This document shows positions 33,017 to 34,197 of a stretch of 64,000 nt of DNA, one piece after another (within the stretch, counting starts at the first letter, position 1; every line of letters starts with the position of its first letter). The notes beneath the pieces are model-generated. The model was not told the DNA's origin, did no database searches, and was given only the letters and a program-made list of their open reading frames with translations. This DNA is from Phyllosticta citribraziliensis (lineage: Eukaryota), in the NCBI RefSeq assembly GCF_038025025.1, contig NW_027117345.1:186001-250000 (forward strand), in the 5' to 3' direction. The translations under genes and the position numbers were made by a program.

Positions 33017-34197
33017 ATGAGCAGCCCCAAGCGGAGGATCGAGTCTGATGTGAGTGGTGCTTGATACTTTTTATCCTCGAGGGACACCCACAAAAGAAAA
33101 AAGAGAACAAAAAAATAGTGCAAGCAGGCTGACCAAGGACCACCTTGGGCGCGGCGCAACAGGTCATGAAGTACGTCGTCCGTCCAGCACGGTGCACGCC
33201 ATAGCTAACGAGTGTCCCAGGCTGTATGTCGACTCGCCACCGTCCACACACGTACCCGCCCCGCCGTAGCTCGAGATGACGCGACACGAGACGAAATGGC
33301 TTCTGCTGGGGCGACTGATGGACCGACTAACTGACGCCGTGCTGCAGGTTGATGAGCGACTGGGAGGTCACGCTCGTGGGTGACAATAGTAGGGAACATG
33401 TCTCGATGGGAAATAAGAGTCGTGGCTAACGAGTGCGCAGTGTGCGTTGCACCGATATACTACCACGTGGCGATCGAGGACGGGGACAGCGGCTGATTGG
33501 AATGCGCAGGCAAGAATTCTACGTGCGCTTCAAGGGCCCAGAAGAGAGTGCGTCATCCACAGCCCACCTCATTCCACACGGCGACGCCAAGATTTACAGA
33601 AGGAGAGAAAAGGAAAAAGGAAAGGCAGAACTGACAACGAAATCAAGCACCCTTCGCGGGCGGGCACTGGAACATCCACGTCGAGCTCCCAGACCAATAC
33701 CCGTACAAATCGCCATCCATCGGCTTCACCAACAAAATCTTCCACCCCAACATCGACGAGCTGTCGGGCTCCGTCTGCCTCGACGTCATCAACCAGCAGT
33801 GGTCGCCCATGTACGAGCTCATCAACATCTTCGAGGTCTTCCTGCCGCAGCTGCTGCGCTACCCCAACCCGACCGACCCGCTCAACGGCGAGGCCGCCGC
33901 CCTGCTTATGCGCGAGGAGAAGAGCTATAATGCTAAGGTTAGGGGTACGTGATGACTCCACATTTCCGGGGAAGGGGGGAGAGAGAGAGAGACGTGCTGG
34001 AGGGAAAGGATGCAAAGGAAGGGCCTGCGGGGAATCATGGCTGACAGTCGCCCCCAGACTACGTCCTCAAGTACGCGTCCAAGGAGTCGGCCGACGAGGC
34101 AGAAGACGATTCAGATGAAGAAGACGAAATGAGCTCGGTCGGCAGCTACGAGTCGGGCGAGGACGACGAGCCGGCGGGCACCATGGAGGAGATTTGA
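33017..34197 (+). CDS. UBC8: Ubiquitin-conjugating enzyme Ubc8/UBE2H (186 aa); exons 33017-33049, 33163-33170, 33221-33223, 33348-33388, 33441, 33510-33547, 33648-33944, 34058-34197
   Basis: Spliced product [80 protein letters not shown], then an acidic tail. Exon total is 561 nt. Confidence 0.93.

Follow-up and report, generated by a model that had tools for sequence, protein, structure and literature searches.

A probable constitutive single-nucleotide exon in a UBC8-type gene of Phyllosticta citribraziliensis and its conservation in related loci

Can a single nucleotide lying between two introns be an exon in its own right? The question is raised by a gene in the window analysed here, a 64,000-nt stretch of Phyllosticta citribraziliensis DNA (assembly GCF_038025025.1, contig NW_027117345.1, positions 186,001 to 250,000), from whose first letter all coordinates below are counted. 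On its plus strand, 33017-34197 holds an eight-exon UBC8/UBE2H-type gene for a ubiquitin-conjugating enzyme (E2), and the assembled protein has 186 aa. Exon 4 (33348..33388, 41 nt) reads ...GAC AAT A at its end, the last base being the first base of a Met codon, and exon 6 (33510..33547) starts with G CAA GAA TTC and has A as its last base. Between them lie intron 4 (33389..33440, 52 nt; donor gtaggg, branch gctaAc 11 nt before AG, acceptor gcgcag) and intron 5 (33442..33509, 68 nt; donor gtgcgt, branch gctgAt 13 nt before AG, acceptor gcgcag), leaving one base, T33441, as exon 5. The Met29 codon is composed of A33388, T33441 and G33510 and hence draws on three exons, with introns 4 and 5 inside it in phase 1 and phase 2, one base apart. 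A sequence-only reading of the window had described this layout and proposed a functional 1-nt exon; its letters and coordinates for both introns and the T were found to be correct. We conclude, with a probability of a little over 90%, that T33441 is a constitutive single-nucleotide exon between two short U2-type introns, each of which has its own donor, branch site and acceptor and is removed separately. The exon is regarded as functional because of spliced RNA contigs, the peptide DNMQEFYV in transcript-derived orthologues and a conserved two-intron layout.

T33441 is the sole T within 33389-33509 with AG before it and GT after it. The base thus stands between an acceptor AG and a donor GT, and both introns have a donor, a branch site, an acceptor and a workable length. 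It is also needed for the frame and for the conserved DNMQEFYV. Excising 33389-33509 as a whole leads to a frameshift (DNSKNST...) that moves the stop to 34130, within the last exon and 65 nt short of the normal one, and retaining intron 4 brings in a TAA at 33427, both of which agree with what the sequence-only reading had claimed; retention of intron 5 gives a stop at 33494. No single excision yields AATATGCAAG, since in the genome AATAG.. stands at one end of the interval and ..CAGGCAAG at the other. Seven single-intron GT/GC..AG combinations would keep the frame, the most plausible using an AAG acceptor at 33514 and giving ...DNKFYV..., and all seven were rejected since none fits the RNA contigs described below. 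The predicted RNA fold of 33375-33525 was no better than that of shuffled sequences (z +1.65; 195/200 shuffles fold at least as well) and therefore provides no structural explanation. The spliced junction would read GACAATATGCAAG with the T included, GACAATAGCAAG with the T skipped and GACAATAAATTC with the AAG acceptor; an intermediate that has lost intron 4 but still carries intron 5 would show ACAATAT+gtgcgt, and one that has lost intron 5 but still carries intron 4 would show gcgcag+TGCAAGAA.

A search of public runs returned 24 rows, and four runs were aligned: X1 and X2 (organism label A), X5 (label C) and X8 (label F). They represent four studies and three organism labels, and all are Logan contigs marked 'RNA?' by guess; the joints in these contigs identify them as spliced transcripts. 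In 4/4 runs, the joint 33388->33510, whose skipped ends are GT..AG, holds exactly one letter, T, and this mRNA base is non-contiguous with both flanking exons in the genome. Exon 4 and exon 6 (33510-33547) are covered in X2, X5 and X8 with 0 other letters, and record 8 of X2 crosses all seven joints of the gene, again with 0 other letters. The transcript search proposed from sequence has therefore found the included junction in every run aligned. Furthermore, transcript-derived orthologues read DNMQEFYVRF, in agreement with the DNMQEFYV that had been attributed to Ubc8 orthologues. Neither the skipped form nor the AAG-acceptor form was present in the contigs of the four runs, although contigs drop rare variants.

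The same contigs bear on the public model of this gene. A protein of 190 aa with the source name Phyllosticta citribraziliensis (P0003) is reproduced letter for letter if 33192 is taken as a donor and 33514 as the AAG acceptor. This model posits one intron, 33389-33514, in place of introns 4 and 5, and an in-frame product that reads ...DNKFYV... and is two residues shorter. Its frame is open, an AAG acceptor is indeed used in intron 6, and P0003 and seven other listed models take it. However, no 33388->33515 joint occurs in the four runs, all of which join to 33510 with the T; past the branch site of intron 5, the first AG comes at 33508-33509; and transcript-derived orthologues keep MQE. The RNA contigs contradict both of the splice choices made in P0003, and we consider it extremely unlikely that the single-intron model describes the transcript. 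The match to UQ_con begins at profile position 28 in P0003 vs 8 in a correctly spliced orthologue (P0028), and in wrong models the N-terminal part of the UBC fold is missing or garbled.

The interpretation of T33441 as an exon is further carried by related loci. Metagenome contigs were scanned with an alignment of the exon 7 protein, which returned 80 loci, and these were sorted by regular expressions for the ends of exons 4 and 6. The two exons were contiguous in 38 loci (transcript contigs and intron-less genes) and interrupted in 26, and the patterns left the arrangement unassigned in 16. The A|gt...ag|T|gt...ag|G layout was found in 25/26 interrupted loci, with introns of 48-79 nt and 46-74 nt; locus L064 offers two possible T positions. 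The exception among the interrupted loci is L067, which lacks the 1-nt exon. Where intron 4 would be, it carries one 47-nt phase-1 intron (A|gtcagt...gagcag|TGCAG, locus ~2330-2383); intron 5 is absent, and the locus is a candidate for an ancestral or a secondarily simplified state (loss of intron 5). Clustering of the interval at 80% identity gave 18 clusters of metagenomic loci, which together with the window made 19 sequences. Interval identity between clusters was low (median 0.60, maximum 0.76), and the clusters are therefore taken as independent lineages with diverged introns. AG|T|GT flanked on both sides by 40 nt or more was found in 19/19 clusters, vs a mean chance of 0.026 per locus (2000 shuffles per sequence). 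Around the 1-nt exon, only YAG|T|GT was invariant (19/19), joined by G at +5 in 18/19 clusters. A strict YTRAY branch motif was detected in intron 4 in 19/19 clusters and in intron 5 in only 12/19, and the intron 4 homologue contains it in all 25 loci. An alignment of related loci had been suggested as a check on the two adjacent introns, and by these counts the pair is conserved.

Conservation also speaks to the origin of the mRNA base, as mature mRNA alone cannot tell which genomic T it carries. The T might come from elsewhere, be it from T33434 with a GC donor (context AG|T|GC), from non-templated addition or editing, or from an assembly error. T33434 lies only 4-5 nt past the branch A and is unconserved, and its use would require gcgcag as a 'donor', whereas the YAG before and the GT after T33441 recur in every cluster. 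An assembly error is excluded by the recurrence of the same layout in 25 independent loci and by flanking RNA (33348-33388, 33510-33547) without other letters. We consider a source other than T33441 very unlikely.

Given that the sequence-only reading had predicted that gene finders miss such exons, public protein models were compared at this junction. A database protein search returned 3198 homologues, and the best 120 were sorted by regular expression, so that the following classes are approximate. The correct DNMQEF was present in 18 proteins. DNKFYV, the product of the AAG acceptor, was present in 8, DNM followed by Y/F/C/S-V... (intron 4 removed, T+gtaygt read into intron 5) in 21, DNS... 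(frameshift after skipping, or reading into intron 4) in 29 and some other continuation after DN in 9, and the end of exon 4 was missing in 35. The prediction held: 102/120 of the best-listed orthologue proteins lack the correct junction, including the public model of the window gene. Of the 18 correct entries, 5 are NCBI-named fungal models, 12 are unnamed jgi/lgn entries and one is a plant protein. Among the matches listed, only 5/104 NCBI-named fungal models are right at the Met29 codon, and only 12/120 models are right at both the 1-nt exon and the 3-nt exon described below. Skipping of the 3-nt exon stays in frame with the loss of one Leu, and exactly this was seen in 21/120 listed models.

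Garbling of the same kind was found in source-named proteins of Pseudogymnoascus, Lachnellula, Diplocarpon, Drepanopeziza, Pyricularia, Phyllachora and Thyridium, and also of Coniochaeta, Geoglossum, Lasallia, Sclerophora, Ascodesmis and Trichophaea. Classes were looked up for Aspergillus niger, Sclerophora, Ascodesmis, Coniochaeta, Phyllosticta and Tricharina, which places the garbled models of Coniochaeta in Sordariomycetes and those of Ascodesmis in Pezizomycetes. The first four genera we take to be Leotiomycetes, Pyricularia, Phyllachora and Thyridium presumably belong to Sordariomycetes, and Trichophaea presumably to Pezizomycetes. The garbled models are indirect evidence, yet they are consistent with the DNA loci.

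An exon this small might also be regulated. According to this explanation, T33441 is a cassette whose skipping switches Ubc8 off through the frameshift, with or without nonsense-mediated decay (NMD), and the sequence-only reading had indeed suggested an on/off switch acting by NMD. Skipping would need only the intron 4 donor and the intron 5 branch site and acceptor, and it destroys the frame before the catalytic core; the intron 5 signals are weaker than those of intron 4 in many relatives, and a minor skipped form could escape the contigs. Nevertheless, only the included form was seen in 4/4 runs. Moreover, the frameshift stop at 34130 is in the last exon with no junction downstream, which is not the classic context for NMD, and NMD is therefore no obvious outcome. 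The loss of both introns in several lineages (see below) argues against an indispensable regulatory role. A regulated cassette thus appears unlikely, and the proposal of an NMD switch was not borne out.

On the favoured reading, two separate splicing reactions yield the mRNA GAC AAT A-T-G CAA and the protein ...VGDNMQEFYV.... The reactions would be consecutive and not simultaneous, because the intron 4 branch site (A33429) and acceptor are within 13 nt of the intron 5 donor; this would resemble a recursive splice site, apart from the one base that stays. Recursive splice sites are AG|GT ratchet points, or zero-length exons, in long Drosophila and vertebrate introns, and are used in an obligatory 5'->3' order. 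Like them, UBC8 has an acceptor next to a donor, and the reactions would take place one after the other on overlapping signals. Whereas they leave nothing in the mRNA, UBC8 keeps one base; its introns measure only 52 and 68 nt, and formally they could be removed in either order. A strict recursive splice site with a zero-length exon was rejected because one base is retained in the mRNA: the locus resembles the mechanism and is no member of the class.

Intron 4 would be removed before intron 5, which we regard as probable at roughly 60:40. This order is favoured because intron 4 is transcribed first and has a branch site that is consensus-like in every lineage examined, and also because of an intermediate in X1 in which the upstream introns are gone and the downstream intron 3 is retained. 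Support for the order of removal from this X1 contig and from the YTRAY counts (19/19 vs 12/19) is weak. Skipping would be avoided if the intron 4 donor pairs with its own strong proximal branch site and not with the distal one, and this proximal site is probably what prevents it. Very small exons hinder the binding of adjacent spliceosomes, according to earlier work cited in a paper on Arabidopsis (PMC4674806).

Several points weigh against the account given so far. No splicing intermediates of introns 4 and 5 were seen in the four runs, in which no contig covers intron 4 or intron 5; this speaks for neither order of removal. Logan contigs labelled as RNA by guess cannot give rare isoforms, strand or expression levels, and they bear on the order of removal and the source T only indirectly. 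The contigs of X5 and X8 give the ATG of the mRNA and not the intron structure of those genomes. Exons 4 and 6 are contiguous in 8 loci on contigs of at least 7 kb and in 5 more with R before LMSD, this R being a trace of the intron 3 acceptor. The 1-nt exon is therefore not universal, and several lineages have lost both introns, some of them also upstream introns. Finally, the DNA loci are unnamed metagenome contigs, and the class-wide spread is based mostly on the form of mis-annotated protein models.

T33441 is not the only very small exon of the gene. Exon 1 (33017..33049), like all features of the gene on the plus strand, starts with ATG, and RNA contigs cross from it to the joint at 33049/33051, where GT is ambiguous between intron 1 and exon 2. 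Intron 1 (33050..33162, 113 nt, gtgagt...caacag) is skipped in the RNA contigs of X1, X2 and X5. It is followed by exon 2 (33163..33170), an 8-nt micro-exon GTCATGAA, by intron 2 (33171..33220, 50 nt, gtacgt...gctaac...cccag) and by exon 3 (33221..33223), a 3-nt micro-exon GCT. The joint 33051->33348 in X1, X2 and X5 holds CATGAAGCT, that is, the 8-nt exon and then the 3-nt exon, the letters CATGAA(GCT) lying between the joint sides; the loose ends of X8 carry the same micro-exon letters. CATGAA at exon 2 is the only one in 33050-33347, and GCT at 33221 is the unique AG|GCT|GT. An X1 record joins 33051 to 33221 with CATGAA between. In record 2 of X1, introns 1 and 2 are gone, and the aligned part begins at 33221 and continues through the retained intron 3 (33221-33376), which therefore fixes the position of the 3-nt exon. 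Intron 3 itself (33224..33347, 124 nt, gtatgt...ctaactgac...ctgcag) is spliced out in the main contigs and kept in this one X1 contig. The word depth of the contig with intron 3 retained is about 1/4 of that of the spliced form, depth being a poor measure, and intron 3 may be a slow splicing step. The transcript contigs with exon 1 (record 1 of X1 and record 8 of X2) are 3220 and 3231 nt long and extend >2 kb past the 5' end of the aligned stretch; the part upstream of 32900 is a very long leader, or else an adjacent transcript has been merged in.

The two micro-exons are found in related loci as well. In 13/16 loci where exons 1 and 4 were both found, the 1-nt exon comes together with the 8-nt and 3-nt exons, the AG|GTNATGAR|GT exon being present in 13/16 and the 3-nt exon in 14/16. 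Of the remainder, L064 shows just the 3-nt exon, while both micro-exons are missing from L070 and L075 by the patterns used.

Downstream of exon 6, intron 6 (33548..33647, 100 nt, gtgcgt...actgac...atcaag) ends in an AAG acceptor, ..aaatcaag|CA, which is the first AG past the actgac branch motif, and the joint 33547->33648 was seen in 4/4 runs. Exon 7 (33648..33944, 297 nt) encodes the UBC core with the HPN motif and the catalytic Cys region and is represented by RNA pieces. Intron 7 (33945..34057, 113 nt) is supported by the joint from 33943/33944 to 34057/34058 in X1, X2 and X8, and the coding part of exon 8 (34058..34197) encodes an acidic tail and ends with the stop TGA at 34195-34197, RNA pieces continuing into the 3' untranslated region (UTR). 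The seven introns of the gene all have GT..AG ends and CTRAY-type branch motifs, and their lengths range from 50 to 124 nt. The same 11 nt, GCTAACGAGTG, occur at the 3' ends of introns 2 and 4 (33204-33220 vs 33424-33440), and introns 4 and 5 both terminate in TGCGCAG (33434-33440 vs 33503-33509). These shared ends were not observed generally in the other loci; they could be due to chance, or intron duplication or gene conversion could have left them behind. Purine-rich and (GA)n tracts are present in introns 6 and 7 (33590-33630, 33967-33998), and 33967-33998 was left out of the read alignment as a repeat.

The assignment of the gene is based on its domain, its orthology and its tail. Pfam PF00179 (UQ_con) matches exon 7 alone (E 3.2e-32), the best protein relatives, at 86-100% identity, are source-named ubiquitin-conjugating enzyme E2 8, E2 H or Ubc8, and the acidic C-terminal tail of the 186-aa protein aligns with orthologues. 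The closest named protein is that of Phyllosticta citribraziliensis, a member of Dothideomycetes. Judged by sequence, the gene is a UBC8/UBE2H-type E2, an enzyme that presumably works with the GID ligase.

One-base exons are already known. A 1-nt exon (A333) in Arabidopsis thaliana APC11 was proven by base substitution in constructs (PMC4674806). It is constitutive and, like the UBC8 exon, has AG/GT flanks, is needed for the frame, was missed by annotation and was found via a cDNA base non-contiguous in the genome (PMC4674806). The APC11 exon differs in coming from a plant, in its base (A) and in its long upstream intron (333 nt into a 422-nt interval), and its source was proven by substitution, whereas the UBC8 source base is supported indirectly, by the conservation of YAG|T|GT. 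The APC11 intron is lacking in rice paralogues, and it is not reported as widely conserved (PMC4674806). CYP621A P450 genes of Fusarium contain a 1-nt exon, AG|G|GT, whose joint is confirmed by SRA reads and which is self-described as the second example and the first in fungi (PMC12940212). This case shares with UBC8 the setting in Pezizomycotina, a conserved motif, an interval about 2x the usual intron and automatic models that are nearly all wrong. However, it concerns one genus with 20-24 rarely expressed genes and a G in the middle of a Gly codon (PMC12940212), as opposed to a housekeeping E2, the T of a Met codon, two more micro-exons and many classes in UBC8. Thirteen 1-nt exons were listed in a long-read annotation of Coprinopsis cinerea, a basidiomycete unlike the UBC8 host, which indicates that fungal spliceosomes repeatedly handle such exons and that omitted micro-exons break gene models (PMC12230235).

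The stwintrons of Pezizomycotina are another relative, in which the external intron has one of its splice signals split by the internal intron and no base stays (PMC9024468, PMC12403724). They resemble the UBC8 pair in that two contacting U2-type introns of filamentous ascomycetes are removed consecutively. The UBC8 introns differ in having intact signals and an exonic T between them, and a stwintron was rejected since the splice signals of both introns are uninterrupted and the T is kept in the mRNA. No report of a UBC8 micro-exon or 1-nt exon was found in the literature searched, whose coverage excluded subscription journals. The UBC8 case is new and unusually widespread. It is distinguished by a conserved, well-expressed housekeeping gene, by RNA support, by the company of 3- and 8-nt exons, by its occurrence in many distant filamentous ascomycetes and by the large number of wrong gene models that it gives rise to.

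The age of the exon can be approached through one locus in particular. When L006 is spliced with 8-, 3- and 1-nt exons, it yields exactly the first 41 residues of the transcript-derived protein P0164, to which its exon 7 is 100% identical. This exon 7 is also 98% identical to a source-named Tricharina praecox protein and at most 94% identical to any protein named outside Pezizales, and T. praecox belongs to Pezizomycetes according to the taxonomy look-up. We regard L006 as a second, independent, RNA-backed instance from a Pezizomycetes-like class far from the window. Exon 7 of an intron-less locus, L012, has 95-96% identity to both Penicillium and Coniosporium names. Assignment of lineages by summed tblastn scores was tried and rejected, as it was swamped by two double-domain plant proteins, and only L006 was placed.

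The cluster of three micro-exons (8, 3 and 1 nt) appears to date to early Pezizomycotina. On balance, we lean towards the view that the 1-nt exon and its 8- and 3-nt neighbours were fixed at or near the origin of Pezizomycotina and have since been spliced faithfully in most classes, and that the large majority of public UBC8 models there are wrong at this codon. The classes concerned would be Pezizomycetes, Eurotiomycetes, Dothideomycetes, Leotiomycetes, Sordariomycetes and lichen-forming classes. The error in annotation is systematic, and gene predictors and spliced aligners for fungal genomes can be benchmarked simply on this locus. It also provides a comparative system for asking which intron features guarantee the inclusion of an exon that cannot be defined as such. 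If the ancient origin is true, the UBC8 exon would be by far the oldest and most widespread single-nucleotide exon known, and it would serve as a natural test bed, in a housekeeping gene, for the means by which intron-defined spliceosomes keep from skipping an exon that is too small for recognition.

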